Source of the DNA: Kiritimatiella glycovorans
Lineage (GTDB): Bacteria; Verrucomicrobiota; Kiritimatiellia; Kiritimatiellales; Kiritimatiellaceae
Direction: 5' to 3'
Assembly (NCBI RefSeq): GCF_001017655.1
Contig: NZ_CP010904.1
Coordinates: forward strand, 2,670,001 to 2,702,000
Length of the DNA: 32,000 bases
The translations under genes were made by a program, and so were the position numbers. The notes below the pieces were generated by a model. The model was not told the DNA's origin. It searched no databases and saw nothing but the letters and a program-made list of their open reading frames with translations. Shown in pieces: positions 2,108 through 15,857 of the stretch (the first letter of the stretch is position 1; the number at the start of each line of letters is the position of its first letter).

Positions 2108-2997
2108 GGCAAAATCCCCTCTTTCGTCATCCATTCCCGCGCCACGGCGCGCTCGTCGCGATGATGGATATCGACCTCGGAATTGAGTTCGCGGATGGTC
2201 TCCGTGTCGAGATGCTCCGCAAGGGGGGCGAGGGCTTCGCGAATGCCGCCGTACTGTTCCAGCGCCGCTTCGCGCACCACCGGCGCGGGGTTATACACGG
2301 GGAAGAAATCGCAATCGTCCTCCAGGGTAACGAAATCGAACGCCGCGATGCGGCCGTCCGTGGCGAACCCCATCGCCACGTCGAGCTGGCCGTCGCGGAG
2401 TGCCTTGTAGACGAGGCCGGTGGACATCTTCCGGATCTGTCCGTAGGGCACGCGGAACCCGCAGGTTTTCATCAGCCGCTTGAATCCGTCGGGTCGTTCC
2501 CAGAATTCGCTGTTCATCCCGAACGCCAGGTCCTGCGGGTGGTTCTGCACGTGCGAGGCCAGGGCGGAAATCGTGTCGATCCCCTTCTCCTCCGCCTCCG
2601 CCCGGCGCATGATCAGCGTATAGGTGTTGTTGAACGGGAGCGGATCGAGCCAGACCAGCCCTTTCTTCGCGTCATGCTTGCGGACCCATTCCAGCACCCG
2701 CTCGCGGTCGGTCATGACCGAGCGGTCCTTCTTCTTGTAATAAACCGTGTAGGCCGTGCCCGAGTACTCGTAGTAGAGGTCGAAGGCCCCGTTGATCAGC
2801 GACTTCCGCGCCAGCGACGATCCGACCCCCGTCCGCAGATCCACTTCGTACCCCGCGTCCTCCAGCAGGAGCGCCGCCATCTCGGCCAGCAGGAACTGCT
2901 CCGTAAAATTCTTGCCGCCGACCACGATCGGTTCAGCCGCAACCGCGGCGGCGAACATCCCGCTCGCCACCATGACCCCTATCATCCAGCGTTTCAT
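2104..2997 (-). CDS. Glycine betaine/choline-type ABC transporter substrate-binding protein (OpuAC/ProX-like), secreted
   Basis: N-terminal signal peptide MKRWMIGVMVASGMFAAAVAA. Motifs VVGGKNFTEQFLLAEMAALLLEDAGYEV and LYYEYSGTAY are characteristic of the OpuAC family. No permease or ATPase partner is in the window. Confidence 0.8.
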   Translation of the reverse strand: MKRWMIGVMVASGMFAAAVAAEPIVVGGKNFTEQFLLAEMAALLLEDAGYEVDLRTGVGSSLARKSLINGAFDLYYEYSGTAYTVYYKKKDRSVMTDRERVLEWVRKHDAKKGLVWLDPLPFNNTYTLIMRRAEAEEKGIDTISALASHVQNHPQDLAFGMNSEFWERPDGFKRLMKTCGFRVPYGQIRKMSTGLVYKALRDGQLDVAMGFATDGRIAAFDFVTLEDDCDFFPVYNPAPVVREAALEQYGGIREALAPLAEHLDTETIRELNSEVDIHHRDERAVAREWMTKEGILP

Positions 2998-3074
2998 GCT
3001 TCATCTCCCTTTGCCCTCATTTTCGGATCAAAGCGGAGATACTGCAAGGGAAGAGGTCGGATACCCGAAGCGGT

Positions 3075-3257
3075 CACAGAGGATGCCGGGGTCGGGAGGG
3101 GAGACGACAAACGTTCGTAGTAGCGCCGCACGCCTGCCCCCCCGGCAGGCCAGGCGCGTGAAAGATAACGGCCCTGGCCCTGCTTCGCAGGCCTGCGGGC
3201 CTACTACGAACGCAAGAGAGAACGCACCATTTCTTTGCCTGTGCTCTTCTCATTCAT
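3075..3257 (-). repeat. S module copy 1 (long imperfect palindrome; inverted relative to copies 2 and 3)
   Basis: The reverse complement aligns base-for-base at roughly 88-90% with 5611-5789. The core is bounded by CGTTCGTAGTAG (3112-3123) and CTACTACGAACG (3201-3212). Confidence 0.9.
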
Positions 3258-3330
3258 CTTTGCGATCTTTGCGCCTTGGCGAGAGACCTTTCTTGTGTTT
3301 CCGACCACGGATTACGCCGATGAGGCGGAT

Positions 3331-3367
3331 GGGATTTCGAAATCCGAATCGAAGTCGAAATCGGGAT
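3331..3367 (-). repeat. R module (CCGATTTCGA-type short periodic motif)
   Basis: GGGATTTCGAAATCCGAATCGAAGTCGAAATCGGGAT. Its reverse complement resembles AATCCCGATCCCGATTCTGATTCC at 5800-5825 and GAATGCCGATTTCGACCCCGAA at 14600-14621. Confidence 0.6.
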
Positions 3368-3374
3368 GCAGAGA

Positions 3375-3464
3375 GAACATAATTCGTACTCGAGTTCCTT
3401 GAACCGGGGGAGTGGGATCGCGCCTGCGGCGCTCCGAGTACGAGTGCGAGTACGAATTATGTTC
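3375..3464. repeat. T module: 18-bp perfect inverted repeats separated by 54 bp (hairpin-forming)
   Basis: GAACATAATTCGTACTCG (3375-3392) and CGAGTACGAATTATGTTC (3447-3464). Related arms occur at 7281-7307, 13781-13827, 13981-13999 and 14543-14578. Confidence 0.9.
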
Positions 3465-3512
3465 ACCCCTTCATGCTCTTCATGACCTTCATGGTGAATC
3501 CCTATCTTTCCC
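3461..3512 (+). repeat. H module copy 1 (9-bp periodic CTTCATGNN x3, then AATCCC..TTTCCC tail)
   Basis: GTTCACCCCTTCATGCTCTTCATGACCTTCATGGTGAATCCCTATCTTTCCC. It ends 8 nt before the stop codon (3521-3523) of the minus-strand Wzy-TPR gene. Confidence 0.9.
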
Positions 3513-3520
3513 GCCGGCGG

Positions 3521-5542
3521 TTATTCCCCGGTCCTTTCCCTGAGCCACTTGATATTGCGCCGGATGGAGCGGGAGGGACGGGCGTCGGCGGCGCGGAGGA
3601 ACGCTTCGAGGGCCTCGCGGTAGCGGCCCGCCTTTTTCAGTTCCATGCCGAGTTCCTTGTAATAGTGCTCGTTTTCGACGCGCTTGATCTCCGCGGCCTC
3701 CACCATATATTCGAAGCCGCGCTGTTTATTGCCGAGAAAGACATGGACGCGGCCGAGGTCCATCAGAATCTCGGCGTTCGGCGGGTTGTCCTTGTGGGCT
3801 TCAAACAGCGCGTCGCGCTCGAACTGCGCCCAGTAACGCTTCTGCCCGCGGTCGAGCGTGGAGGTGCGCCGTTCGTGGTAGAGTTCTCCGAGCGCGTAGT
3901 GCGCGCGCCAGCTCCGGGGTGAGATGGTGCTCGCGGTCCGGTAGTGTTTCACCGCCGTCTCGTACTCCCGCGCCCGGGCCGCGCGATCACCCGCATGGCG
4001 CACCAGCCCCGAGACGCCGTACTGGAGGGCGAAGAAGAGTCCGATCAGCGAAGCGACGATCCCCGCAGCGAGCAGGATGCGCCGTTCCAGCTTCGGAAGG
4101 CTCCGGCGGCGGAGCGCGAGCGCGGGGCCCGCCGCGATGCCCGCGAGCAGGGCCATGACCTGCGGATTGGCGTACATCTGGAAATTGAAATCGAACATCG
4201 CATGGACCAGCGTGCCGGAGAGCATCGCCAGCGCCGCGGCGATCAGCGCGGCGGGCGCGCCGGGCGGCGCGCGGCGCAGGAGACGGATGAAGGCGGCATA
4301 CCCCCAGACGATCGCGAAGAGAAAGATCCCGAGACCGATCCAGCCGCACTCGGCGATCAGGTTGAAGTACTCGCTGTGCGCGAAGCGGGCCATCTTGGGC
4401 TGGGATCCCGTCCCGCGATCCCAGTAATGGCGATAGTCCGGGATGATCCATTCATACGTGCGGAGACCGTGACCCGCCCAGGGGTGATCGGCATGCATCC
4501 GCAGGGTGTCGGCTATCAGCATGGGGCGAAATACATGCTCGCGAGACACCAGCGCCGCGGCGATCGAACGCATATCCTCGTCCGAACCTTCGGCATCGCC
4601 GACATGCTCCTCCGCTTCTTTTGAAGTCTGCCAGGCTTCATAGAGGTCGGTGGCGTAGGCGACAACCTTTCCGCCGCGCTCTCGAAATTCGGGAGAGACC
4701 TGCCACAGCCCGTAGAGTCCCGCACCCATGAGGAAAGGCGCGAGGAGTGCGGCGAGGATGAATCCCTTCCAGCTCCGGCGGAGGATCAGGAAGCACGGCG
4801 TCGCGACGACCGCCGTGATCGCGCCGAGCCAGCCCGCACGCGACTGCGTGAGGTGCAGGGCCCACGTACACGGCACGAGCGCACCCAGCGCGAGCAGGCG
4901 CAGCGGCCAGCCCGCCGCTCTGAGGAAAGGCAGCACCAGCGCAAAGGGAAGCAGCAGGCTCAGGTAATCCGCGAGGTGATTCGGGCATCGGTAGGTCCCG
5001 TTGGCGCGCTCGCCGTACTGCGTCTCCTCCCAGAGGACCATGTTGCCGTCGGTTACATCCTGCACGATCCCATAGATGGAAATTCCAACCGCCACGGCCA
5101 TCAGCAGGAATAGCATCCAGCGTCCGCGCCGGAAATCACGCAGCAGGTTCGTCCATGCCCAGTAAGCCCCGAGAAAGGTCCCGATGCGGAGATAGCCGAT
5201 CTGCGTCTCGTACGGGATGCGCGAGGTGAACAGGAAAAGGCCGCTGACCAGGAACAGCGCGGTCCACACGACTGCGGCGGGCGGGACGCGGAACACCTCG
5301 TCGATCTGCTCCGGATCCCGGCGCAGGCGCGAGAGAAAAAACAGCGCGACGCCCAGCATCGACGCCATCACGAACGGCGCCACCGACCAGATATGCGTGT
5401 CGGATCCGCCGAAGAGCACCGGCGCGCCCAGGGGGGGCAGCGCGAGCAGGCACCATACCAGCCCCGTGAGCACGCGAATGACCCCGGCCTCGCTGTTTTC
5501 ACTGTCGCGGTTCATCATCGATTCGCACTTTTTACCCGCCAT
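3521..5542 (-). CDS. O-antigen ligase/polymerase-like (Wzy_C family) polytopic membrane protein with C-terminal TPR repeats
   Basis: Multiple hydrophobic helices. HLTQSRAGWLGAITAVV matches the Wzy_C-type loop. The C-terminal 170 aa have a TPR-like pattern (AHYALGELYHERR, ILMDLGRVHVFLGNKQRGFEYMVEAAEI, YYKELGMELKKAGRYREALEAFLRAADARP). Confidence 0.8.
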   Translation of the reverse strand: MAGKKCESMMNRDSENSEAGVIRVLTGLVWCLLALPPLGAPVLFGGSDTHIWSVAPFVMASMLGVALFFLSRLRRDPEQIDEVFRVPPAAVVWTALFLVSGLFLFTSRIPYETQIGYLRIGTFLGAYWAWTNLLRDFRRGRWMLFLLMAVAVGISIYGIVQDVTDGNMVLWEETQYGERANGTYRCPNHLADYLSLLLPFALVLPFLRAAGWPLRLLALGALVPCTWALHLTQSRAGWLGAITAVVATPCFLILRRSWKGFILAALLAPFLMGAGLYGLWQVSPEFRERGGKVVAYATDLYEAWQTSKEAEEHVGDAEGSDEDMRSIAAALVSREHVFRPMLIADTLRMHADHPWAGHGLRTYEWIIPDYRHYWDRGTGSQPKMARFAHSEYFNLIAECGWIGLGIFLFAIVWGYAAFIRLLRRAPPGAPAALIAAALAMLSGTLVHAMFDFNFQMYANPQVMALLAGIAAGPALALRRRSLPKLERRILLAAGIVASLIGLFFALQYGVSGLVRHAGDRAARAREYETAVKHYRTASTISPRSWRAHYALGELYHERRTSTLDRGQKRYWAQFERDALFEAHKDNPPNAEILMDLGRVHVFLGNKQRGFEYMVEAAEIKRVENEHYYKELGMELKKAGRYREALEAFLRAADARPSRSIRRNIKWLRERTGE

Positions 5543-5580
5543 CGGGCGGTACAGACAAGAGAGAAGAGGAGCCCGTCAAA

Positions 5581-5610
5581 GGCCACTAAAGGGCACAAGG
5601 GGGCACAAAG
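5581..5610 (-). repeat. K module copy 1
   Basis: GGCCACTAAAGGGCACAAGGGGGCACAAAG is the reverse complement of the CTTTGTGCC..CTTGTGCC..GTGGCC motif seen at 5890-5931, 7671-7700, 12111-12153 and 14383-14456. Confidence 0.85.
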
Positions 5611-5789
5611 ATGAATGAGAAGAGCACAGGCAAAGAGATCGTGCGTTCACTCTCCCGCTCGTAGCAGGCCCGCAGGCCCGCGCAGCGGACCAGGGCCGTT
5701 ATCTTCACGCGCCTGGCCTGCCGGGGGCAGGCTTACGGCGCTACTACGAACGTTTGTCGTCTCCCATCCCGAACCCGGTATCCTCTGTG
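5611..5789 (+). repeat. S module copy 2
   Basis: Begins ATGAATGAGAAGAGCACAGGCAAAGA, contains CTACTACGAACGTTTGTCGTCTCC and ends ATCCTCTGTG. It is the inverted partner of 3075-3257. The left terminal repeat is degenerate (CGCTCGTAGCAG, 5656-5667), so the outer stem is weakened in this copy. Confidence 0.9.
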
Positions 5790-5842
5790 GTCTCGGTGGT
5801 GAATCCCGATCCCGATTCTGATTCCTATTCCCCCCGAACCAA

Positions 5843-5931
5843 CCTTCATGCTCTTCATGTCCTTCATGGTAAATCCCATTCTCTCCCCCCTTCTGTGTCC
5901 CCTTGTGCCTCTTTGTGGCCTTGTTGTGGCC
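5843..5931 (+). repeat. H module copy 2 fused directly to K module copy 2
   Basis: CCTTCATGCTCTTCATGTCCTTCATGGTAAATCCCATTCTCTCCCCCC followed by CTTCTGTGTCCCCTTGTGCCTCTTTGTGGCCTTGTTGTGGCC. It ends 4 nt before the stop (5936-5938) of the minus-strand ATPase gene. Confidence 0.9.
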
Positions 5932-5935
5932 CGGT

Positions 5936-7168
5936 TCACCCGCCCGCCGGTATCCACGGAATCTGGTAGACGTGGTGCTCCAGTTCCGCAAAGTGGCCCG
6001 TGGACGTGATAATCCCGGCAAACGCCACCCGGTCGCCATAGGTCTCGCGGAATCTGAGCAGCCCCCTGTGCTCATCACCTCGCAAAAGCGCATTCCATTT
6101 GCATTCGAAGGCAAAGAGTTTGCCTCCGCATTCGAGGACGAGATCCACCTCCTGTTGCTGGCTGCGCCAGTGATAAAAGCGGACATTTGAAAGCGTCGAC
6201 GAAACCAACGCCCGCATCTCGAGGAAGACGGCGGACTCGAACAGGAACCCGAGCATGGGGTGGGTCAAGAGGGACTCCCGCGAAACGACCTGAAGAAGGT
6301 GACAGATCAACCCCGTATCAAAGAGGGTTCCCTTCGCTCTCTTCGCGATACGCTTGATCTGATTCCCCGAATAGGCCGGCAGTTTATGCCAGACCCCTCC
6401 GGTCTCCAGTGACTGAAGCCACCGCTGCGCAGAGGGGGGCGACATCCCAATGTCACGACCGAGACGGCTCTTGTTGATTTCCCGCATGGTCAGGGGGGCG
6501 AGCAAACGCATGAAGTCGATCATGCGGGAGGCATCCTCCAGTTGGACGGCCAGAGAAAGATCACGTTCGATGTAGGTCCGCAAGTAACTCTCGAAGAAGG
6601 GACCGACAAACTTTTCCTTTTTCCCCAGAAGGCCTGGAAGCCCCCCGAGCCTGATCATGGCCTCGGGCCGCCTCAGGTCTTCGGTTTCGCTGAAATCGGC
6701 GCGGGTCAGGCTCCCCTCTTCAAGCAGCATGGGGAGCCAGTGCTTTGCGCTGCCCCGGCCTGAGCGCTCCCATACGGTCATCGGGAACAGCTCCATTAGA
6801 AGCACGCGCCCCGCCAGACTCTCCTGAAGATTCCGGATCAGATGAAAGGGCTGCGAGCCGGAAAGAATGAATTGTCCCGTCCGGTTGTGTTCATCGATGC
6901 GACGCTTGATCTCGGGCAGAAGCTGCGGCGCGTACTGTACCTCGTCAATAATAAGCGGCTGATCATAGTTGCGCAGGAAGGTAACCGGATCGCGCCTCGC
7001 CTGCGTGCGCAATGTGGTATCATCAAGCGTCACGTAATCGTAAGATGCCTGAAAAAGATGCTTCAGCAGCGTGGATTTACCCGCCTGACGGACGCCCGAA
7101 AGGGCCACAGCCGGAAACTGCGAGGTCGCCTCCAGCAAAGAGGATTCCGTATGACGAGCTAAATACAT
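5936..7168 (-). CDS. AAA+ ATPase of the AAA_14/DUF4143 type (ATP-binding protein with nuclease-fold-like C-terminal domain)
   Basis: Walker A GVRQAGKSTLLKHLF and Walker B-like PLIIDEVQY. The C-terminus EVDLVLECGGKLFAFECKW has the DUF4143/restriction-endonuclease-like pattern. GC is visibly lower than in neighbouring genes. Confidence 0.8.
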   Translation of the reverse strand: MYLARHTESSLLEATSQFPAVALSGVRQAGKSTLLKHLFQASYDYVTLDDTTLRTQARRDPVTFLRNYDQPLIIDEVQYAPQLLPEIKRRIDEHNRTGQFILSGSQPFHLIRNLQESLAGRVLLMELFPMTVWERSGRGSAKHWLPMLLEEGSLTRADFSETEDLRRPEAMIRLGGLPGLLGKKEKFVGPFFESYLRTYIERDLSLAVQLEDASRMIDFMRLLAPLTMREINKSRLGRDIGMSPPSAQRWLQSLETGGVWHKLPAYSGNQIKRIAKRAKGTLFDTGLICHLLQVVSRESLLTHPMLGFLFESAVFLEMRALVSSTLSNVRFYHWRSQQQEVDLVLECGGKLFAFECKWNALLRGDEHRGLLRFRETYGDRVAFAGIITSTGHFAELEHHVYQIPWIPAGG

Positions 7169-7230
7169 GGAGCAATATTAATGCGTCGCGTTAAATTTGC
7201 AATACTTTTGTGGTGCTGATTCCGAACCGT

Positions 7231-7307
7231 GGGGGAGAGAATGGGACTAACCATGAAGGACAAGAAGAGCATGAAGGGGTGAACATAATTCGTACTCGTA
7301 CGCGTAC
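7231..7307 (-). repeat. H module copy 3 (inverted) plus a truncated T arm
   Basis: GGGGGAGAGAATGGGACTAACCATGAAGGACAAGAAGAGCATGAAGGGGTGAAC is the reverse complement of H. GAACATAATTCGTACTCGTACGCGTAC follows and has no partner arm. Confidence 0.85.
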
Positions 7308-7670
7308 GTTGTGACGCGAGCGGATTTCTAATCCAGCCGCTACGATTTCAGTAGTTCCACAAAAATCTACAAAGAACCATATTTGAAAAGACCGTGTCAG
7401 AAGTACGACGGATCGATTAAGCGTATCCGAGTAAAGGTGGCGGTTAAGTGGGCGACGAAGGGTCCGCTGAAGTGTGGACTGCGCCCTTCCACGAACCCTT
7501 AACCGCATTCTTCACCGCAACACTTACCCGGATACACGTAATCGAACCGCTTCCTCCTGACTTCCGAATCGGGACCCCCGAATCCGCAACACCCTCCTTG
7601 CCGCTCAAGGACTTACGACAACTTTTCTGACCTCCTCGGAAGTCAGCAGATTGGATTTCCCGCTCACTCT

Positions 7671-7700
7671 CTTCTGTGTCCCCTTGTGCCTCTTTGTGGC
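7671..7700 (+). repeat. K module copy 3
   Basis: CTTCTGTGTCCCCTTGTGCCTCTTTGTGGC. It ends 1 nt before the stop codon (7702-7704) of the minus-strand HAD gene. Confidence 0.9.
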
Positions 7701-7701
7701 T

Positions 7702-8310
7702 TTATTCCGTCACCCCCAACACGTTCGCGACCGTGAGCGCGCCCTGCGCGGGATCGTGGCGATGCACCCGGAATCCCTCTTTCGCGGCCGCAATCGTATT
7801 CCGCACGTCATCGTCGATGAACAGGCTTACTCCGGGATCGATGGCGGCCCGTCGGGCCACGTGGCGGAAGATCGCCGGATCGGGCTTGGTCATTCCCAGT
7901 TCATACGAGAGGAAGATGTGTTCGAAGAACCCGCTCATCGGGACGCCGCCGGACACAGCCCGGAATGTACGCTCGCATTCGCGGTAGTGGATGGCATTCG
8001 TATTGCTGAGCAGGAAGAGCCGGAATCCGCGCTCCTTCAACTCGTCGAGCATGGCGATGTGCCCCGGCGGGACCGCGCCGATGATCTCGTTCCAGGCCGT
8101 GTCGATCTGCCGGTCGCCGAGGTCCCGCCCCGCCGCCTCCCGTACACGATCGCGAAACTGCGCCTCATCGATGACCCCGCGCTCGAACTCGCCCGCCAGG
8201 CCCACCATGCCGTGAAGTCCCAGCGCGGTCAGGCGCCGGAGCCCGCGCATCCGGTGGATATCGATCAGCACGCCTCCGAGATCGAAGAGGATGTTTCTGA
8301 TGGGGTTCAT
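7702..8310 (-). CDS. HAD-superfamily phosphatase, subfamily IA (YihX-like sugar-phosphate phosphatase)
   Basis: Motif I ILFDLGGVLIDI, LLSNTN, GMTKPDPAIF and FIDDDVRN parallel the E. coli YihX layout as I recall it (FDLGNVIVDI, VLSNTN, GMRKPE, FFDDN). Confidence 0.8.
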   Translation of the reverse strand: MNPIRNILFDLGGVLIDIHRMRGLRRLTALGLHGMVGLAGEFERGVIDEAQFRDRVREAAGRDLGDRQIDTAWNEIIGAVPPGHIAMLDELKERGFRLFLLSNTNAIHYRECERTFRAVSGGVPMSGFFEHIFLSYELGMTKPDPAIFRHVARRAAIDPGVSLFIDDDVRNTIAAAKEGFRVHRHDPAQGALTVANVLGVTE

Positions 8311-8475
8311 GGTCCGGCATTATGGATGACGCGAAGGCCTGAAGAAAGAAAAGGAAGCGCGGCCGGCACCGGGCCGCGGGGCATGCGTTTCCGGGGTGTT
8401 CGCATGTCTCTCAGGTTCCGTTCGGAATCAAATATCCCTCGAATTTGCCCCGGCATCGCGGTACACCACGTCTTC

Positions 8476-10086
8476 ATGAAGCCGGAAGACGCATCAGGCC
8501 CCTGGTGGCGGAGGGGTTCTATTCAGGCGCGGATCCTTTTTGCCGCGACGCTCCTGCTGTTTCTGCTGACCTTCCCCGAGAACCACACGGAGGCGGAGGA
8601 CGCGTACGACTACGCGTGGAACGTGGAACGGGGCGGGGAGGCCCTGTTTCACTCGTTTCACCTCCTCTATCTCCCCCTCATGCGCGCGCTCCGGGGATTC
8701 ATCCGGCCTTTCTCCACAGAACTGCATGCGTATCCGGTCATGGCGGCGGTGAGCCTGCTGAGCGGCGCGGCGGCGGTTGCGGCGCTGTTTCTGGTCGTAC
8801 GCCGCCTGCGGGACACGGGCGTGGCGCTGTTCGCCGCGGCGGGGCTGACGTTCTCGTACGGATTCTGGCGGTATGCCTGCGAGGCGGAGGTGTATGTCCC
8901 GGCCTCGCTCGCCGCGCTGGCGGCGTTCGGCTGCGCCGTTCGTGATGAACGCGGGGCGCGCCTCCAGGCGGCCGCCGTCGGCTTCTCGATCCTGGCGGTC
9001 TCGCTTCACGTGCTGCAGGGCTGGGCGGTACTCGTCTGCCTCCCCGTATACCACCTGCTCCGGCGCCGACCACGCCGCGCGCTCATCCATCTGCTCGGGT
9101 CGGCTGCGGGCATCGCCGCCGTATACGGAACCACGGCCGCGACCGGCCGACTCTTCTTCACGGCCGGAAGCTGGCAGCCCGAAGGCGGCCTCCGGGTGGC
9201 GTCGCTGCTCAAGGGGATCGTCGGCGCGGGCCAGAGCCTGGTCGCGGGCAATTTCGTCTTCGCCTTCCCCGGGGCGGCTTCGGCCATCGAACGGATGTTT
9301 CCCTACCGCGCGCTGAGCGAGGAGATCTTCATGGGCCGCGCAGGACCGGCGGGGCTGCGGTTCGCCGCCGCGGGTACGCTGGTCGCGCTCGCGGTCGCGG
9401 CAACACTCGCCCTGCTCACCGAGGTGCGCTCCAAACGGGGCGGGGCGGGCGCCCCGTGGTCCGCGCCCCGCCGTGCCGCCGCGGGCGCGGTCATCCTGTG
9501 GCTCACCGGCGCCTCCGGCGCGGTCTGCGTCTTCGAACCGGGCAACCCCGAACTCTGGACGGCCGTCCTGCCGCCGCTGTGGATGACCGCCGGGCTGGTG
9601 CTTCCCGCCGCCACGCCGCGCCGCCGGGGGACGAGAACGGCCCTGATCGCTCTGCTCGCCCTGCACAACTGGACCGGCGGGATGGCATGGATCGCCGGCG
9701 GCGAAGGGGACTACCACGCACGCAAGGCGGAGTGGGTCGTGGAAAACACGGATTCGCAGGATAAGGTCCTCACGGCCGACAATCCCGTGTTCTTCTTCTA
9801 CCTGCGCTACCACGCGCCGGCCCGCGTCGTCTCGCTGCAACGCCTCGCGGAGGACGCCTTCGATCCCGCTCCCCCGCCCGGAGGGTATACGTATGTTTAC
9901 GGGGATGTGTTCGCTCCTCCTGAATCGATGGGAATCCGCTTCCCCGGTCGCAGCACAAAGCTGAAGCGTTTTGCGGAGAGGCTCCGCCCTGCGGTCGAAC
10001 CGGTCGCCTCGCACCCCTTCGGAAAGATCTACCGGGTTCGGGAATCCCTCGAATTTTCCGCCCCGGGACGCTACACAGGGATGTGA
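8476..10086 (+). CDS. Polytopic membrane protein, candidate GT-C-type (ArnT/PMT-like) glycosyltransferase or polymerase
   Basis: The 3' part of track ORF 7651..10086. The 5' part overlaps the HAD gene on the other strand and is rejected. In-frame ATGs lie at 8383, 8404 and 8476. From 8476 the protein starts with a basic N-terminus followed by a TM helix (MKPEDASGPWWRRGSIQARILFAATLLLFLLTF). An acidic first loop (EAEDAYDY) and about 10-12 hydrophobic helices follow. The function is inferred, not recognised. Confidence 0.6.
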   Translation: MKPEDASGPWWRRGSIQARILFAATLLLFLLTFPENHTEAEDAYDYAWNVERGGEALFHSFHLLYLPLMRALRGFIRPFSTELHAYPVMAAVSLLSGAAAVAALFLVVRRLRDTGVALFAAAGLTFSYGFWRYACEAEVYVPASLAALAAFGCAVRDERGARLQAAAVGFSILAVSLHVLQGWAVLVCLPVYHLLRRRPRRALIHLLGSAAGIAAVYGTTAATGRLFFTAGSWQPEGGLRVASLLKGIVGAGQSLVAGNFVFAFPGAASAIERMFPYRALSEEIFMGRAGPAGLRFAAAGTLVALAVAATLALLTEVRSKRGGAGAPWSAPRRAAAGAVILWLTGASGAVCVFEPGNPELWTAVLPPLWMTAGLVLPAATPRRRGTRTALIALLALHNWTGGMAWIAGGEGDYHARKAEWVVENTDSQDKVLTADNPVFFFYLRYHAPARVVSLQRLAEDAFDPAPPPGGYTYVYGDVFAPPESMGIRFPGRSTKLKRFAERLRPAVEPVASHPFGKIYRVRESLEFSAPGRYTGM

Positions 10087-10937
10087 TGAAATTCTCGATC
10101 GTCACCCCGAGCATGAACATGCTGGAAGACCTGCGCCGATGCCGAGTGTCGGTGGCGGATCAGGAAGGCGTGGAACTCGAGCACCTCGTGCAGGACGGCG
10201 GATCGACCGACGGCACTGCCGAATGGCTCAAGTCTCAGCACGGACTGCTCGGTGTGTCCGAACCGGACGGCGGGATGTACGAGGCGCTGAACCGGGGGTT
10301 CAGCCGCGCGACGGGGGAGATCTTCGCGTGGCTCAACTGCGACGAGCAGTATCTTCCCGGAGCGCTGCGGGGCGTGCACGACTTCTTTGAACGACATCCC
10401 GGCATCGACCTTGTCGCGGGCGATTACCTCGTTGTGGAGGATGGCGGCGAATTGCTCGCATGGCGGAAGACGCTGCCTCCGCGTCGTCTCTACCTCCGCA
10501 CGGGACATCTTTACACGCTCTCGTGCGCGCTGTTCTTCCGGCGGCGGGTCTTTGAGGCGGTGAAGTTTGATCCCCGGATGCGCTGCACGGCGGACCACAA
10601 ATTCATGCTCCGGGCGCTTGAGCACGGGTTTCGGGCGCGCCACCTCCCGGGCTACCGCGCCGCGTTTTTCCTGCGGGAACACAATCTGTCGCTGAGCCCG
10701 AGGGCATGGGATGAGCTGGCCGCACTGCAGCGCGATAATCCGCGGCCGCTTCGCCTGTGCGCGGGACCGATCCGCGCGCTGAAATGGACCGAAAAGTTCG
10801 TGCGCGGCGGCTATCGGCAGCGCTTCCCCCTGACCTATTCCATCTATCTCGACGATGAGGACGAACGCCGACGCATTACGGCGCGCACGGGAACGTGGCG
10901 CTGGCCTGAACGGGGACGTGAGGGGGTGTCGACATGA
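10086..10937 (+). CDS. Glycosyltransferase family 2
   Basis: MKFSIVTPSMNMLEDLRRCRVSVADQEGVELEHLVQDGGSTDGT is a GT2 N-terminal signature. The track start 10083 is GTG. ATG 10086 shares 1 nt with the upstream TGA (TGATG). Confidence 0.8.
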   Translation: MKFSIVTPSMNMLEDLRRCRVSVADQEGVELEHLVQDGGSTDGTAEWLKSQHGLLGVSEPDGGMYEALNRGFSRATGEIFAWLNCDEQYLPGALRGVHDFFERHPGIDLVAGDYLVVEDGGELLAWRKTLPPRRLYLRTGHLYTLSCALFFRRRVFEAVKFDPRMRCTADHKFMLRALEHGFRARHLPGYRAAFFLREHNLSLSPRAWDELAALQRDNPRPLRLCAGPIRALKWTEKFVRGGYRQRFPLTYSIYLDDEDERRRITARTGTWRWPERGREGVST

Positions 10938-12100
10938 AGGGCGACAACCTGCGCGTAGCGATCGATCTGGCCCCGATGCGTCCGGGTAAAGGCGGGACGG
11001 GGAGCGGGATCTGGACGTATGCGTGCGAGCTGCTGCAGGCGCTGGACACGCTTCCGGACGCCGGGGACATGGAGATCCTCTGTCTTGTGCGACCGGAGCA
11101 GCGCCCGCTGCTTCCCGACCCCGGCCGCACCGACATCCTTGAAGTCCCCGAATTCCCGCCCGGCATCCTGCCGCGGCTCGACTGGGTGCACCGCCGGCTC
11201 CCGCGCATCTGCCGCAATGAGCGGATCGACGTGCTGCACAAGCTCGCGACGGAAGTGCCCTGGCGGTCTCCGGCGGCGGGCGTCACGACGGTGCACGATT
11301 TCTTCTACCGTTTCCTGTTCCGTGAAATGCCGCCTCCGCTGACGCACCTCCGGGAACGGCTGAACAGGGCGTACTTCGATCTCATGGAGCGGCGGTGTTT
11401 CGCGACCGGCGCGCGGATCATCACGGTTTCCGAAGCGGTGGCTGAAGAAGCCCGGACCCTCTTCCCGAAGGCCGCCGACCGCATCCGGACCGTGCCGCAC
11501 GGCGCGCCGGCCCCCGATCCCCTGCCCCGTCCGCGGGAAGGCGCTCCCTTCACGTTCATCTGCGTCGCCAAGTTCATGCCCTACAAGGGGCAGGACAAGG
11601 TTCTCCGCGCGTTTGAACACCTGCATCAGAGCATCACCGGGCCGGACAAACCGCGCCTGCTGTTCCGGGGATTCGAAAACGACCGCGATTACTACGATCA
11701 GTTGCGCCGGCGTATCGAATCGAGTCGCGCGCGGGAGGATATCGAGATCCTCGGATACCAGGCCGATGCCGGGATACGTGAGATCTACGCGGAATCCGAT
11801 GCCGCGCTCCTGTTTTCCGCCTGTGAGGGGTTCGGTCTGCCCGTACTGGAGGCCCAGTCGCTGGGGCTTCCGATGATCTGCAGCGGCCTCCCGGTGCTGC
11901 GGGAGGTAGGGGGAGCGGCGGCGGTCTACGTGGATCACAACGATCCCGCCGTTGCGGCGGCGGAGATGGAGCGGCTGATGACGGATCCTGCGCACTACCG
12001 CCGGATCAGGGAAACGGGTCTCGAAAACGTGAAGCGGTTTTCGTGGGCGCAGGCCGCGGAGCGCACCCGCGCGATCTATCGCCAGGCTGCAGCGTCTTGA
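10934..12100 (+). CDS. Glycosyltransferase family 4 (group 1)
   Basis: The C-terminal domain SACEGFGLPVLEAQSLGLPMICSGLPVLREVGG carries the E-x7-E motif. ATGA overlap with the upstream GT2 stop. Confidence 0.85.
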   Translation: MKGDNLRVAIDLAPMRPGKGGTGSGIWTYACELLQALDTLPDAGDMEILCLVRPEQRPLLPDPGRTDILEVPEFPPGILPRLDWVHRRLPRICRNERIDVLHKLATEVPWRSPAAGVTTVHDFFYRFLFREMPPPLTHLRERLNRAYFDLMERRCFATGARIITVSEAVAEEARTLFPKAADRIRTVPHGAPAPDPLPRPREGAPFTFICVAKFMPYKGQDKVLRAFEHLHQSITGPDKPRLLFRGFENDRDYYDQLRRRIESSRAREDIEILGYQADAGIREIYAESDAALLFSACEGFGLPVLEAQSLGLPMICSGLPVLREVGGAAAVYVDHNDPAVAAAEMERLMTDPAHYRRIRETGLENVKRFSWAQAAERTRAIYRQAAAS

Positions 12101-12110
12101 CGACACAGGG

Positions 12111-12153
12111 GCCACAAAAAGGCACAAGCGGACCACAGAAGAAGGGGGGGGGG
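12111..12153 (-). repeat. K module copy 4 (inverted) with G10 tract
   Basis: GCCACAAAAAGGCACAAGCGGACCACAGAAGAAGGGGGGGGGG. It begins 10 nt after the GT4 stop codon (12098-12100). Confidence 0.85.
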
Positions 12154-12164
12154 ATCGGTGTGGC

Positions 12165-12290
12165 GATAATTCTTGAGCGCCTTTCGCGCGGTCGTCCGCG
12201 CAGCGCACCAGCCCCGAAACACCATACTGGAAGCGAAAAACACGCCGACGGCGAACGCCGGCAGCAGAAACAGCCGCGCGAAAGGTCATG
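12165..12290 (-). pseudogene. Remnant of a paralog of the Wzy-TPR gene (last TM helix / linker region only)
   Basis: Core 12203-12240 (GCGCACCAGCCCCGAAACACCATACTGGAAGCGAAAAA) aligns with 3998-4036 of the intact gene at about 32/39 identity with one indel. Translated: FQYGVSGLVRCADDRA versus LQYGVSGLVRHAGDRA. No start, no TPR part, and one end runs into the K module. The outer limits are approximate. Confidence 0.5.
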
Positions 12291-12296
12291 CACCCA

Positions 12297-12695
12297 TTAA
12301 GCACCCAGGCATCTATTCACTGCGTCATAAACGGACCTGGCATAAGCTCTGAACTCTTCCGCCTTGTGCGTTGAAGGCTTGCCCTCGGGCAGAAGCCCCA
12401 AGTCACCGGGATAACGTGCGTCTATATAAAGCTGATCCAGCAAAGCGGGCACAACAGATTCTTCATCTACATCCATCAATTTATTATCTAATATAAGGCC
12501 CGTTAACTGTTCAATGCTGTGTGTCTTTTTGAAAGATATAGCCCGCTCTTCCATCAACGCCTTGTACGATTTCTCCACACATTGCTGAGCGTGGAAAGCA
12601 AGCATATGGGTTAGGTCCGCCCGCCCCTCCAGTTGCTGCATGACCTTGAGATCATCCAGAGCGGCATCGAGCCAGGCCTGCGTGGTCTTTTTCAT
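12297..12695 (-). CDS. HEPN domain protein (PF05168-like), putative toxin partner of the upstream nucleotidyltransferase
   Basis: AFHAQQCVEKSYKALMEE and LYIDARYPGD are typical of the HEPN domain paired with MNT. I do not see a clear Rx4-6H RNase motif. There is a 44-nt overlap with the MNT gene. The region is markedly AT-richer than its surroundings. Confidence 0.8.
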   Translation of the reverse strand: MKKTTQAWLDAALDDLKVMQQLEGRADLTHMLAFHAQQCVEKSYKALMEERAISFKKTHSIEQLTGLILDNKLMDVDEESVVPALLDQLYIDARYPGDLGLLPEGKPSTHKAEEFRAYARSVYDAVNRCLGA

Positions 12696-13035
12696 AAAGA
12701 ACCCTGCCCTCTCTAAGTATATCCCCGCAGAAAACGCTATTCATAGATAAAAACCTTTTATGCATAGGTCGCGTGTGAACAATTATATCTACAGGATATT
12801 TACGCCGAATATCTTTTATTCTGTTGGCTACCCTTAAATAGACCTCGCTCTTCTGATCATAGTTGCGCGGGATAAAATCATCCGTCGTCACTACCAGAAT
12901 ATCAATATCACTGTCTTCACCTGAGGCACCTCGAGCCCGACTTCCGAACAAAACGACCTTTTCAACCCCGGCGGAAACAAGCCGGGAGGTGATCTCCTGA
13001 ACAACCCTGTCAGACACACGATCCATAAACGTCAT
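12652..13035 (-). CDS. Minimal nucleotidyltransferase (MNT, PF01909-like), putative antitoxin
   Basis: KVVLFGSRARGASGEDSDIDILVV carries the GS-x9-DxD polymerase-beta-type NTase motif. ATG at 13035-13033. Confidence 0.85.
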   Translation of the reverse strand: MTFMDRVSDRVVQEITSRLVSAGVEKVVLFGSRARGASGEDSDIDILVVTTDDFIPRNYDQKSEVYLRVANRIKDIRRKYPVDIIVHTRPMHKRFLSMNSVFCGDILREGRVLYEKDHAGLARCRSG

Positions 13036-13168
13036 GGTATGGCGCCGATGTCGGAATTCAAGACGGAACTAAACCCCTGAACCCGTCTTTGCCGATTAAA
13101 TCTTACTTCCCACAACCCACTTTCCACATCCCATACACACGGAAGCTGAACCACGAAGCCGCAGCGTC

Positions 13169-13197
13169 TTGACGTTATAGCGTCATAGCGTTAACTT
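13169..13197 (+). promoter_or_regulatory. Sigma70-like promoter with candidate operator for the RHH/RelE operon
   Basis: TTGACG (13169-13174), a 17-nt spacer, then TAACTT (13192-13197). The spacer contains a tandem ATAGCGT-C-ATAGCGT direct repeat, a plausible antitoxin operator. The Shine-Dalgarno GGAGGTG lies just before ATG 13216. Confidence 0.45.
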
Positions 13198-13215
13198 TGC
13201 CATTGGAGGTGAACA

Positions 13216-13449
13216 ATGACTGCATCCGCCAGGCGAGCGACCATTTATCTGGACAGCGATCTGCACAAGGCCCTGCGGCTGAAATCCGCCGAGACCTCTT
13301 GTTCGGTCTCGAAACTCGTGAACGACGCCGTGCGCGAGGAACTCGCGGAAGACGCCACGGATCTTGCGGCCTTTGATGAGCGAAAGAACGAACCCGCCAT
13401 CCGTTTCGAAGATTTCGTCAGGGATCTGAAGCGTCATGGCAGAATATGA
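13216..13449 (+). CDS. Ribbon-helix-helix (CopG/ParD-like) antitoxin
   Basis: RRATIYLDSDLHKALRLKSAETSCSVSKLVNDAVREEL has the RHH beta-strand plus two-helix pattern. It lies upstream of, and overlaps by 14 nt, a RelE/ParE toxin gene. Confidence 0.8.
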   Translation: MTASARRATIYLDSDLHKALRLKSAETSCSVSKLVNDAVREELAEDATDLAAFDERKNEPAIRFEDFVRDLKRHGRI

Positions 13450-13693
13450 CATCTTTGTCCGCAAGTCCGTCGCGAAAGATCTGAAGCGCATCCCTGCCGC
13501 GGATGCAACGCGGATCGTCGAAGCCATCCGCGCCCTGGGCGGGAATCCGCGTCCCCCGCAGGCCCGGAAGCTTTCGGGCGATGAAAAATACCGCCTGCGC
13601 TGCGGGGCCTATCGGATCCTTTACGAGATCGACGACGGAAAGCTCGTGGTCTGCGTGGTAAAAGCCGGCCACCGGAAAGACATCTATCGGTAA
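13436..13693 (+). CDS. RelE/ParE-family type II toxin
   Basis: 85 aa. AKDLKRIPAADATRIVEAIRAL, YRLRCGAYRILYEIDDGKLVVCVVKAGHRKDIYR is the classic RelE/StbE/ParE layout. Confidence 0.85.
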   Translation: MAEYDIFVRKSVAKDLKRIPAADATRIVEAIRALGGNPRPPQARKLSGDEKYRLRCGAYRILYEIDDGKLVVCVVKAGHRKDIYR

Positions 13694-13780
13694 CCTCCGG
13701 AGGGGACGGGAGAAGGTTTGTTAATCCCACTCTTTCCCCTCGATTTCCATCTCCTGAGATCAACATTGGGATACCCGGGC

Positions 13781-13827
13781 GAATATCGTACTCGTACGCG
13801 TACTCGGAGCGCCGAAGGCGCGATCCC
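13781..13827 (-). repeat. T module, left arm plus interior (inverted orientation)
   Basis: GAATATCGTACTCGTACGCGTACTCGGAGCGCCGAAGGCGCGATCCC is approximately the reverse complement of 3411-3464. It pairs with the arm at 13981-13999 across the S copy. Confidence 0.8.
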
Positions 13828-13833
13828 AAAAGA

Positions 13834-13980
13834 TAAATGAGAAGAGCACAGGCAAAGAAATGGTGCGTTCCCTCTTACGTTCGTAGTAGGCCCGCAGGCC
13901 TGCGAAGCAGGGCCAGGGCCGTTACCTTCACGCGCCTGGCCTGCCGGGGGCAGGCTTGCGGCGCTACTACGAACGTTTGT
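13834..13980 (+). repeat. S module copy 3 (best-preserved hairpin)
   Basis: A 12-bp perfect terminal stem CGTTCGTAGTAG (13878-13889) / CTACTACGAACG (13964-13975). Inner pairings are 13890-13903 with 13950-13962 and 13908-13917 with 13935-13943. The apical loop is 17 nt (13918-13934). Confidence 0.9.
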
Positions 13981-14060
13981 ACGAGTACGAATTATGTTCA
14001 CCCCTTCATGCTCTTCATGGCCTTCATGGCCTTCATGGTTGATCCCATATTTTTCCCCCC
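13981..14060 (+). repeat. T right arm plus H module copy 4 (four 9-bp units instead of three)
   Basis: ACGAGTACGAATTATGTTC followed by ACCCCTTCATGCTCTTCATGGCCTTCATGGCCTTCATGGTTGATCCCATATTTTTCCCCCC. It ends 18 nt before the stop of the minus-strand ATPase fragment. Confidence 0.9.
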
Positions 14061-14078
14061 GGTTTTTTTCATCCCGCA

Positions 14079-14303
14079 TCACGGGCACACGGCGCGATCG
14101 GGCTCAAGTCCGGAGAGAAAATCACTGCAGGGCAGGCAGAGGATATCGTCGATGCGCAGGCGCTCGCTGCCCCGATAGAGCAACATCGTGTCGCACCCCG
14201 GGTAATCTTCACGAAAGCTCTTCAAGCCCCGGAGGTCCCTGCGATCTACACGTCGGCTGTTCTTCACCTCGATCGCACCGGACGTGGATTCGCCGTAGAT
14301 CAA
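14079..14303 (-). pseudogene. 3' fragment of a second AAA_14/DUF4143-type ATPase gene
   Basis: The 74-aa ORF starts at TTG. Its sequence AIEVKNSRRVDRRDLRGLKSFREDYPGCDTMLLYRGSERLRIDDILCLPCSDFL matches the C-terminal pattern of DUF4143 ATPases. No Walker motifs lie upstream. The upstream sequence is a palindrome cluster and repeats. Confidence 0.6.
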
Positions 14304-14382
14304 GTTAGCAACTAATTATGGCATCGGAATTGCCATATTCAGACCGAATATGGCATCGCACCTGCCTTTTTTCCTTCTCTCC

Positions 14383-14517
14383 CTCTTCTGTGTCCCCCTT
14401 GTGCCCTTTTGTGGCTATTGCTCTTTCTCTCCCTTCTTCTGTGTTCCCCTTGTGGCTCTGTTCTCCCTCCCCTCTTCTGCTCTTCATGCCCTTCATGGTT
14501 AATCCCAATCTTTCCCC
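14383..14517 (+). repeat. K module copy 5, a partial K copy and H module copy 5
   Basis: CTCTTCTGTGTCCCCCTTGTGCCCTTTTGTGGC (14383-14415). CTTCTTCTGTGTTCCCCTTGTGGC (14433-14456). CCTCTTCTGCTCTTCATGCCCTTCATGGTTAATCCCAATCTTTCCCC (14471-14517). Confidence 0.85.
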
Positions 14518-14542
14518 ACGGTTTTCCATTTGCGGCGCGCTC

Positions 14543-14621
14543 GGAGATCGCGCCCTGCCCACCGCTCCGAGTACGAATCGCATTCTCTATCTCTGTGGTG
14601 AATGCCGATTTCGACCCCGAA
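14543..14621 (+). repeat. Degenerate T interior plus S-tail/R module
   Basis: GGAGATCGCGCCCTGCCCACCGCTCCGAGTACGAAT resembles 3413-3455. CTCTGTGGTGAATGCCGATTTCGACCCCGAA resembles 5783-5812. Confidence 0.6.
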
Positions 14622-14732
14622 GCGTTTTTTCGGAATCGACTCCTATGGCGTAACTTTATAGGTTGTTTCCGAAGGATAGAGCGAAAATGCGTCCGAAACC
14701 GTTTAACGACATGAACACGCGTGGAGCTTCGT

Positions 14733-15857
14733 ATGGGCGTTCCGTTTCTTGATCTCCGGGCCATGACAGACGAGGTAATGCCGGAGGCGATGCGTCGGAT
14801 CGAAGCGGTGTGCGCCTCGTCTGATTTTATCCTCGGCGAAGAACTGGAACGGTTCGAGACCGCCTTCGCCGACTACTGCGGCGCGCGACACGCGGTCGGA
14901 GTCGCCTCCGGGCTGGACGCGCTGAAACTCATTCTGCGGGCGTACGAGATCGGACCCGGCGATGAAGTGCTCGTCCCGGCTCACACCTTCGTCGCCACGG
15001 CGCTGGCGGTATCTGCGGTGGGTGCGCGTCCTGTACTCGTTGACATCGAACCGGACTTCTTCACGATCAATCCCGAGGCCCTGGCATCGGCGGTAACCTC
15101 GCGTACGCGGGCGGTGATCCCCGTGCATCTCTACGGTCAAACGGCGGACATGGACCCGGTCGTCGCGTTCGCACGCCATCATGGGCTGAAGGTGATCGAA
15201 GACGCGGCGCAGGCGCACGGCGCATCCTATGGCGGGAGGCGGGCGGGAGGTCTCGGCGACGCGGCGGCGTTCAGTTTCTACCCGGGCAAGAACCTCGGGG
15301 CCTTCGGCGACGGCGGGATGGTAACGACCGACGACGCCGCGTTGGCCGAGCGGGTGAAGACGCTGCGAAATTACGGATCGAGCCGTAAGTACTACCATGA
15401 GGAATTGGGTGAAAACAGCCGGCTCGACACCCTTCAGGCGGCGGTGCTGAACGTGAAGCTCGCGCGACTGGACGCCTGGAATGAGGGGCGGCGGAACGCG
15501 GCGCGGGGGTATGCCGAAGAACTGGCCGGTGCGGAGGGCCTCATCCTGCCGCGTGAACAAAAACCGGCAGGGCATGTCTACCATCTGTATGTGCTGCGCA
15601 GTGAAAGACGGGATTTACTGATGCGCAGGCTCGGCGAGTGCCGAATAGGCTGCCTCATTCACTACCCCGTACCCGTCCACCTGCAGAAGGCGTTCGCGTT
15701 CCTGGGGCATGAGAGAGGCGCCTTCCCGGAGGCGGAGCGGGCCGCGGACGAGGTGCTCTCGCTGCCGATGTTCCCGACGATGACCCGTGAACAGGTGAGC
15801 GAAGTGGCCGCTGCGGTGCGCGGAAAATCCTCCGGCGAAACCACGGAGGGCGCATGA
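14733..15857 (+). CDS. DegT/DnrJ/EryC1/StrS-family PLP-dependent sugar aminotransferase
   Basis: [80 protein letters not shown] and [11 protein letters not shown]. The track start 14721 is GTG; I use ATG 14733. Confidence 0.9.

Follow-up and report, generated by a model that had tools for sequence, protein, structure and literature searches.

The enterobacterial repetitive intergenic consensus (ERIC), an imperfect palindrome of 127 nt that has a conserved core, is known only from enterobacteria and vibrios. Repetitive extragenic palindromic sequences (REPs) of the GTAG type, often paired in inverted orientation, have been reported in the PVC superphylum (Planctomycetes, Verrucomicrobia, and Chlamydiae), and REP families may be species-specific or common to several species (PMC3733652). 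Direct repeats of the heptamer TAACTGA occur in Beggiatoaceae, Cyanobacteria, and Bacteroidetes, with S1, Csp, and CsrA-type proteins proposed as binders (MacGregor 2015, PMC4679880). In Geobacter bemidjiensis, multicopy sequences account for 12% of intergenic regions, often several together and with non-random co-occurrence, and Table S6 of that genome paper lists YTT[TCTTTGCG]3TGAGG and TTT[WCCTCTGTG..]nGTGAG (Aklujkar et al. 2010, PMC2996986); paired octanucleotide arrays on opposite strands of G. metallireducens were entered as "predicted global regulator binding sites" (Aklujkar et al. 2009, PMC2700814). Here, we describe six gaps between genes in a 32,000-nt stretch of Kiritimatiella glycovorans (NZ_CP010904.1, positions 2,670,001–2,702,000; hereafter the window, to which all coordinates refer), which are mosaics of shared non-coding modules, among them arrays of three short units whose nearest prior descriptions are in the Geobacter genome papers, without explanation there.

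Our preferred reading, to which we assign a probability of about one half, is that the gaps hold nested non-autonomous repeat elements, whose arrays may be sites for a sequence-specific protein that reads duplex DNA. The palindromic modules (S and T) are best explained as lineage-restricted elements, and the CTTCATG array (H), with its sisters built on CTTCGTG, CTCTGTG, and CTTTGCG, as part of a superfamily found in many bacterial phyla and in phages.

Repeat modules of the six gaps

The gaps (2998–3520, 5543–5935, 7169–7701, 12101–12296, 13694–14078, and 14304–14732; gaps 1 to 6), with borders taken from the open reading frame (ORF) map and Pfam assignments, sum to 2,459 nt. Although this is only 7.7% of the window, 9 of 24 tandem-repeat rows fall there. 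Repeats cover 59, 72, 24, 34, 80, and 36% of gaps 1 to 6, respectively, and 0.2% of the rest of the window. The initial annotation saw the gaps as assembled from common modules in varied order and orientation, and this is what we find, the modules being real and gap-confined; its phrase "almost no unique sequence" is too strong for a coverage of 24–80% per gap, and gap 3 holds approximately 350 nt of unique sequence. The 5-mer self-similarity of the gaps at lags of 6, 8, 9, 10, and 12 is 3–10 times that of shuffled sequence and remains after masking H, so that short periodic mini-arrays characterise these gaps in general. No S, T, H, or K module occurs at 15–32 kb of the window.

The H module has a period of 9 nt in the window, where four arrays are recovered by pattern against 0 expected from shuffles and a fifth has a decayed first unit. 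The array has three units in three copies and four in one, and one unit is decayed in each of two copies. All five arrays read ...CATGGT followed by D-A/G-A/T-T-C-C-C, and the tail beyond, GGTTAATCCCATTCTTTCCCC, has four copies within three mismatches (0 expected) and two further diverged copies by alignment. A composite of T arm, H array, and tail, 75–85 nt long, occurs three times: at 3438–3515 (+; H at 3469–3494 with three CTTCATG units, 6 nt from the Wzy_C-TPR stop), at 13979–14064 (+; H at 14004–14038 with four units), and, inverted so that the tail comes first and the T arm last, at 7225–7307 (−; H at 7251–7276, with CTTCTTG as the middle unit). An H array with tail but no T arm lies at 5843–5890 (+; array 5844–5869) and, with the decayed first unit, at 14472–14524 (+; array 14472–14497); a solo tail without an array was located at 13719–13746 (+) by repeat finding, alignment, and pattern count. 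The five copies plus one tail first proposed therefore stand.

On the purine-rich strand of 3469–3515 (−), 7225–7285 (+), and 14004–14064 (−), the tail resembles a ribosome-binding site (GGGAGAG/TGGGA), and the array reads as a mini-ORF (MKVMKSMKG-stop, MKDKKSMKG-stop, and MKAMKAMKSMKG-stop, respectively), each closed by the TGA of the T arm. These mini-ORFs are probably a by-product of the 9-nt period, though the closure is consistent in three copies.

The K module reads [CTTCTGTG][TCCCCTTGTG][CCTCTTTGTG]GCC, that is, three units, and its core CTTGTGCCNNTTTGTGGC is present in five copies against 0.02 expected from shuffles, in line with the five to six copies initially counted. It is found inverted at 5579–5607 (−; three YTTGTG-type units, period 9–10 nt), at 5890–5925 (+; with the AAA_14/DUF4143 ATPase stop 10 nt away), at 7667–7701 (+; abutting the HAD hydrolase stop codon and having an exact 30-mer in common with 5890–5919), inverted at 12108–12146 (−; 8 nt past the GT4 stop), and as two K-like units at 14375–14476 (+), inside a 51-nt tandem duplication. 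The copies at 5579–5607 and 5894–5922 form 29-nt, 86% inverted repeats that bracket gap 2. Directly after the inverted K downstream of the GT4 gene comes a run of ten G (12146–12156), a possible slippage-prone tract.

A module at 3256–3285 (+), CTTTGCG-AT-CTTTGCG-C-CTTGGCG, has a three-unit grammar like that of H; a 16-mer of it is also present in a Deltaproteobacteria metagenome-assembled genome (MAG), and arrays of its type are among those listed for G. bemidjiensis. Three units are common to K, this CTTTGCG module, the hexamers of the T loop, and H. One proposed module did not survive: R, a TCGAA-type array at 3329–3367, had been called a recurring module of three copies, but its repetition within the window is not significant, the 9-mer occurring twice against 0.79 expected and being matched by 20 of 100 shuffles. 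Only one match of R is longer, 31 nt at 74%, and related arrays elsewhere are anecdotal.

The S unit (approximately 155 nt) is present in three copies, the number initially annotated, with about 90% identity. Each consists of a purine-rich arm (50 nt) and, after it, a near-perfect hairpin (100 nt), and the core 24-mer of S is exact in all three (0 expected from shuffles). These are S1 (3107–3262, −), S2 (5606–5757, +), and S3 (13829–13980, +). Beyond the unit, S1 and S2 have a further 32–42 nt in common (3065–3106 and 5758–5790, 42 nt in the case of S1). The S3 hairpin has a predicted energy of about −77 kcal/mol; z is −4.9 for one of its strands and −6.0 for the other. The hairpin arms read CGTTCGTAGTAG... 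and ...CTACTACGAACG, that is, two GTAG-headed inverted arms pairing over 100 nt, and because of this S resembles a REPIN (a hairpin of two inverted REPs). The resemblance is a lead and not demonstrated membership: GTAG is present, but a 4-nt tag is weak, and only one arm has a small palindrome of its own. The ends of S, AAAGATGAATG... and ...ACGAACGTTTGT, are not inverted repeats.

The one complete T (3375–3466) is a hairpin with 18-bp outer arms (3375–3392 and 3449–3466; z = −4.4), as the initial annotation had it, and a 56-nt loop containing a hexamer array (CGTACT-like, three times) and a small GC hairpin. Three copies of the 24-nt T arm are present against 0 expected from shuffles. In gap 5, the left part of T (13786–13828, +), 93% complementary to 3413–3455, and the matching right arm (13981–14002) lie on either side of S3, which substitutes for 20 nt of the T loop. 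Such nesting is what insertion produces, and the T-S-T order already noted at 13.8 kb is best read as an S inserted into a T hairpin. The other order that had been proposed, K(inverted)-S-R-H-K, recurs only loosely, since S1 is inverted relative to S2 while the H arrays of gaps 1 and 2 are not inverted relative to each other.

Triple arrays in other bacteria and in phages

The genome collection was searched with (CTTCATGNN)2CTTCATGG, and three successive copies of (CTTCATGNN) match more than 120 genome loci. These come from isolates and from MAGs, and a dozen or more phylum-level groups appear in their titles. In what follows, statements on H arrays in genomes refer to the matches listed. The isolates among them include Methylobacter tundripaludum, Desulfobacter vibrioformis, Desulfoluna limicola, and Thiocapsa sp. 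KS1, and the MAG titles include Pseudomonadota, Thermodesulfobacteriota, Planctomycetota, Verrucomicrobiota, Kiritimatiellae, Lentisphaerota, Acidobacteriota, Nitrospirota, Chloroflexota, Bacillota, Latescibacterota, and others. A few matches look coding or like long tandem repeats (L009, L012, L046, and L088). H is not lineage-specific and belongs to a widely dispersed family.

The architecture of these arrays is nearly invariant. Three units are present in 151 of 159 H arrays (95%), a T follows at +2 in 96% although the pattern does not require it, and an A-rich stretch comes next. The 2-nt spacers are pyrimidine-rich. Neighbouring heptamers lie 9 nt apart in 99% of cases for H and in 94–99% across the families, and few chains reach four units or more. 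Within genomes, H lies in dispersed elements of 100–250 nt whose copies are 75–97% identical, and the non-H parts of these elements are lineage-specific.

At the loci listed for H, only H matches the window, and 11-mers common to the window and other loci are uninformative, falling on 41% of gap positions and 47% of coding positions. Counterparts of other modules near H in unrelated MAGs are anecdotal (the T-loop hexamer 18-mer, TCGAAATCC-type arrays, CTTTGCGCCTTGGCG, and CTCTGTGGTGAAT). One MAG, uncultured bacterium SRP090828_co4_59 (loci L010, L020, L027, L038, L044, L066, L084, L093, and L103), has intergenic chains of varied triple arrays that form a richer mosaic than that of the window, with the words GACGCAAAG, CACAGATTT, CTTCATG, GGCTGAAG, CATGTAG, TTCGAAA, and CGTACTCG and an 18-mer identical to the T-loop array of the window.

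The initial idea of a dispersed family holds for H, and by grammar would extend to K and the CTTTGCG module; S was found nowhere outside the window in metagenome contigs or predicted proteins. Its core 22-mer gives two chance matches in metagenome contigs, with no flanking similarity, and a profile search of predicted proteins with the S-encoded peptide gives no match.

Sister arrays are carried by phages. Among the IMG/VR viral contigs, patterns of a heptamer repeated three times plus GT match at least 120 loci for CTCTGTG, 96 for CTTCGTG, 15 for CTTTGCG, and 14 for CTTCATG; two composition-matched control heptamers match 3 and 1 loci, mostly in giant-virus contigs. Viral contigs with H or CTTCGTG arrays encode recurrent protein families, including portal, terminase, and capsid proteins, and the CTTCGTG arrays have three units in 110 of 112 cases. 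Several contigs are rich in them, e.g., up to six CTTCGTG arrays within 14 kb on one phage contig (L165) and seven over four stretches of contig 3300032046_000115. In another (L163), a near-identical segment of array, spacer, Shine-Dalgarno sequence, and ATG stands ahead of two different genes.

Interpretation and its alternatives

Under the preferred reading, two kinds of part would be mixed in the gaps, the palindromic S and T and the triple arrays H, K, and CTTTGCG, a triple array being understood as three copies of a pyrimidine-rich heptamer spaced at a 9-nt period (9–10 nt in K). Each array may be a platform bound on double-stranded DNA, in a sequence-specific way, by a trans-acting protein; candidates are a mobiliser of recombinase or transposase type and a regulatory or nucleoid protein. 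The array would sit at the outer end of a non-autonomous element, and the mosaic would have been built by elements inserting beside and into each other, together with local duplication. Any influence on neighbouring genes, e.g., through S and T hairpins in transcripts, would be secondary.

The case for duplex recognition comes from comparison across genomes. In 51 inverted H pairs, 73 of 204 spacer positions are Watson-Crick compared with 77.6 ± 7 when re-paired at random, and 18 inverted CTTCGTG pairs give 31 compared with 24.9 ± 4.1, which is not significant. Spacers without co-variation indicate that the word is conserved and not the stem, and selection of inverted H pairs as stems was accordingly rejected. 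Among the matches listed, solo arrays are not biased in orientation with respect to the genes that flank them. The lack of spacer co-variation and of strand bias together favours recognition of double-stranded DNA over a strand-specific RNA role, and the cross-genome data argue against such a role for H-type arrays. On the tail side, the next gene boundary, be it a start or a stop, is a median of 23–26 nt away, compared with 106–112 nt on the head side; being near a boundary of either kind, the tail acts as the outer terminus of a discrete unit.

Several points weigh against this reading and should be kept in mind. The ORFs in array loci were called by a longest-ORF heuristic, which is crude. 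In 62 inverted array pairs, no direct repeat of 4 nt or more that would be a target-site duplication lies outside the AC...GT ends. Neither a transposase nor any recurrent gene was found near the arrays, the 147 neighbour proteins and their 187 Pfam families being mostly housekeeping. The ends of K (GTGGCC) and of the CTTTGCG module in the window differ from the GT rule, and both would join the superfamily by grammar and not by direct search. Finally, with S missing from metagenome contigs and predicted proteins, its three copies could be purely local duplication.

Other mobile-element models were considered along the way. Cut-and-paste transposition with target-site duplications is unsupported by the 62 inverted pairs; elements that make no duplications, such as those of the type formed by REPs and REP-associated tyrosine transposases (RAYTs), are possible. 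The hypothesis that arrays mark mobile gene cassettes, or lie beside transposase or toxin-antitoxin genes, was rejected because the neighbours are ordinary and diverse. Integron attC sites, considered for cassette-like genes, are not indicated, as inspection of S and T by eye reveals no RYYYAAC/GTTRRRY boundaries.

The first alternative, which ranks second and which we consider unlikely, places the function in RNA, as the initial annotation did: the modules would be cis elements of the kind formed by REPs and bacterial interspersed mosaic elements (BIMEs), with hairpins that stop 3′ exonucleases, attenuate read-through, or mark processing sites. S and T do form much better folds than shuffled sequence (z = −4.4 to −6.0), the distance from a stop codon to the K or the H tail that comes next is 6–15 nt for the Wzy, HAD, GT4, and 74-aa ORF genes and at most 46 nt for the ATPase gene, around half of the H arrays elsewhere have a pairable inverted partner 7–40 nt off (among the matches listed), and REPs are themselves reported mostly downstream of coding regions (PMC3733652). 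The spacers of those inverted partners, however, do not co-vary, most arrays are solo, and there is no strand bias with respect to gene direction. Terminator-like sites number 13 compared with 10.6 ± 3.6 expected and are absent at S, T, and H save for a weak one in a T arm, and the stretch past H is A-rich and not U-rich. Rfam yields no match at the gathering threshold across the window and none at E ≤ 1 across 2900–14800, and canonical H hairpins in eight other loci return only sub-threshold look-alikes of miRNA precursors. Co-transcription, moreover, would have to span gaps of 400–530 nt between functionally unrelated genes.

Ranked third, and improbable in our judgement, is a purely local duplication history, in which S, T, and K are rearrangement debris from the insertion of accessory genes and only H is part of a wider family. 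The copies all lie within 11.7 kb, with none in the remaining 20 kb of the window; S is missing from the metagenome contigs and predicted proteins; there is gene debris in the gaps (the Wzy fragment at 12185–12231 and the 51-nt tandem duplication at 14375–14476); and the region is low in G+C and includes toxin-antitoxin genes. Against this, the S copies point both ways and have three different flanking contexts, one within T, which insertion fits better than segmental duplication. Beside H arrays in an unrelated MAG stand 18-mers of the T arm, and the three-unit grammar of K is that of families abundant elsewhere. The DegT protein of the window is 100% identical to one from K. glycovorans, its next match is 64% identical, and since the species has no close sequenced relative, missing matches in other data say little.

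It is very unlikely that the arrays are single-stranded RNA sites for a general binder (ribosomal protein S1, a cold-shock protein, or a CsrA-like protein) that tune translation of the gene downstream. The arrays are pyrimidine-rich, 28 phage arrays face a gene start tail-first at a median of 26 nt with a Shine-Dalgarno sequence in between, and the cross-phylum TAACTGA heptamer repeats provide an analogy (PMC4679880). Gene ends, though, are faced as often or more (44 compared with 28 arrays in phage contigs and, among the matches listed, 63 compared with 44 in genomes), inverted partners put complementary purine-rich sequence in the same transcript, and the fixed three units and conserved G-T are left unexplained.

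That the arrays are small coding genes, with the tail as Shine-Dalgarno sequence and the purine-rich strand of H reading ATG AAG nnC (M-K-x-M-K-S-M-K-G-stop), is scarcely credible: three of five copies (3469–3494, 7251–7276, and 14004–14038) are ORFs of 9–12 codons closed by the T-arm TGA, but the other two read on into unrelated sequence, the array in other phyla is preceded by TTTTCACC and no ribosome-binding site, the variable positions are codon positions 1–2 of the third codon and not a synonymous pattern, and sister arrays such as CATGTAG contain stop codons.

Returning to duplex-DNA sites in nested elements, one may ask how many proteins would read them. We regard it as doubtful, though worth stating, that the CTTCATG, CTTCGTG, CTCTGTG, and CTTTGCG triple arrays are recognition sites of one ancient, widespread protein system, shared or exploited by phages. 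Its reader might be a trimeric or three-domain DNA binder, or a recombinase domesticated as RAYT is for REPs. Were this true, the arrays would be genome punctuation of a hitherto unrecognised, pan-bacterial class, fixed in its 3 × 9-nt architecture. If the mosaic is merely REP-like debris or debris of miniature inverted-repeat transposable elements (MITEs), it documents such elements in Kiritimatiellota, and ORFs called across these gaps would be spurious, which should serve as a warning for annotators. More interest attaches to the H-type arrays, in which an identical 7-nt word stands exactly three times, keeps a strict 9-nt period, and has a conserved G-T end, and for which there is no curated family or accepted explanation. 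Conservation of a non-coding word across phyla usually implies a conserved reader; if one exists, its discovery would define a new regulatory, nucleoid, or mobility system, and the fixed architecture of the arrays makes the question of the reader directly testable.

The surrounding locus and known systems

By the ORF map and Pfam, the minus strand encodes an OpuAC-type binding protein (2104–2997), a Wzy-type protein (Wzy_C+TPR, 3521–5542), an AAA_14/DUF4143 ATPase (5936–7168), a HAD hydrolase (7702–8310), a HEPN protein (12297–12695), and an MNT nucleotidyltransferase (12652–13035); the plus strand encodes GT2 and GT4 (10083–12100), an RHH-like antitoxin and ParE (13216–13693), and a DegT aminotransferase (from 14733). 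The G+C content is 0.52–0.58 at 6–8 kb and 12–15 kb, compared with 0.60–0.70 in the flanking 1-kb bins, and the low stretches coincide with the DUF4143 ATPase, HEPN/MNT, and RHH-ParE genes and with repeat-rich gaps. Because G+C drops at the ATPase and toxin-antitoxin genes, this suggests accessory genes put into a glycosyltransferase/polysaccharide locus. In the K. glycovorans genome paper, 75 transposase genes and 12 tentative genomic islands are reported, and nothing is said of repeated or intergenic sequence (PMC5148204).

Not everything in the gaps is a repeat module. The 47 nt at 12185–12231 duplicate, at 81% identity, an internal stretch of the Wzy_C-TPR gene (3980–4026) and look like the remnant of a second copy or of a rearrangement; a terminator-like hairpin (12243–12263, −), downstream of the HEPN gene, adjoins them. 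Between gaps 5 and 6, a 74-aa ORF (14079–14303, −) has no Pfam match at E ≤ 1 but resembles the C-terminal region of the DUF4143 ATPase over 10 residues (RGLxxFRExY, E = 0.036); it may, at a guess, be a remnant of a DUF4143 gene, and an H array follows both this ORF and the ATPase gene. In gap 3, the approximately 350 nt at 7308–7655, without a Pfam or Rfam match, include a hairpin-capable stretch at about 7441–7507 (GCGGTTAAG...CTTAACCGC) and could be a small RNA or a decayed gene. Two long ORFs (7651–10086, + and 8494–10014, −) overlap on opposite strands at a G+C of 0.66–0.70, neither with a Pfam match, so that either strand could be the coding one between the HAD and GT2 genes. No tRNA or tmRNA was found in the window, and scans for promoter-like and terminator-like sites indicate no enrichment.

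The modules match no curated RNA family, and no description of them was found in the literature searched, in keeping with the initial annotation, which did not recognise them as any described family; queries with the motifs themselves returned primers only, and with subscription journals mostly outside the scope of the search a prior description is possible. Like REPs, BIMEs, and REPINs, the modules are short extragenic repeats in intergenic mosaics, often right after stops; as with REPs and REPINs there is no target-site duplication, and the two GTAG-headed inverted arms of the S hairpin recall a REP doublet. Unlike REPs, the periodic modules (H, K, and the others) repeat one unit three times in direct orientation and are not palindromes, and unlike the members of REP families, the H heptamer is identical across genomes of all the phyla named above. 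REP units are short palindromes tagged at one end with GTAG (or CGTC), are dispersed in tens to hundreds of copies per genome, and flank a cognate RAYT gene, which encodes the IS200/IS605-type Y1 transposase that mobilises them. No RAYT/Y1 transposase is among the 23 ORFs scanned against Pfam, a search that covered the window only. S has three copies in 32 kb and none in the metagenomes.

The BIME/ERIC label of the initial annotation is not supported. BIMEs of the E. coli type are built from REP (PU) units, imperfect palindromes some 35 nt long that alternate in orientation, with defined linker motifs in between, and they bind IHF and gyrase. In the gaps, only S and T are palindromic, and the modules show no alternating common palindromic unit with the defined linkers of a BIME. 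They differ from ERIC by description only, no ERIC sequence having been compared: the host belongs to Kiritimatiellota, and there is no module of about 127 nt with that layout. Like MITEs, the elements are small (100–250 nt), non-autonomous, and multicopy per genome, gap 2 is bracketed by 29-nt inverted K copies, and S is nested in T. Unlike MITEs, the arrays are without target-site duplications or a related transposase nearby, S has no terminal inverted repeats, and the core is common across phyla while the remainder of each element is lineage-specific.

The TAACTGA repeats are likewise a specific short word in tandem, intergenic and in distant phyla. Their units are contiguous (period 7), number 2–43, and lie mostly a few nucleotides upstream of starts (PMC4679880), a position that suggests strand-specific action in RNA; arrays of the window type differ in their 2-nt spacers, fixed three units, conserved G-T end, and lack of orientation bias. 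The Geobacter "multicopy nucleotide sequences" are unnamed, were treated in single genomes only, and were not seen as a cross-phylum or phage-borne family, and CTTCATG and CTTCGTG are absent from the supplementary files of the G. bemidjiensis paper, the only Geobacter files checked. It is nevertheless in these lists that the closest likeness is found, for their three pyrimidine-rich units ending in TGCG or TGTG, followed by G-T-G-A, have the grammar of H, K, and the CTTTGCG module.

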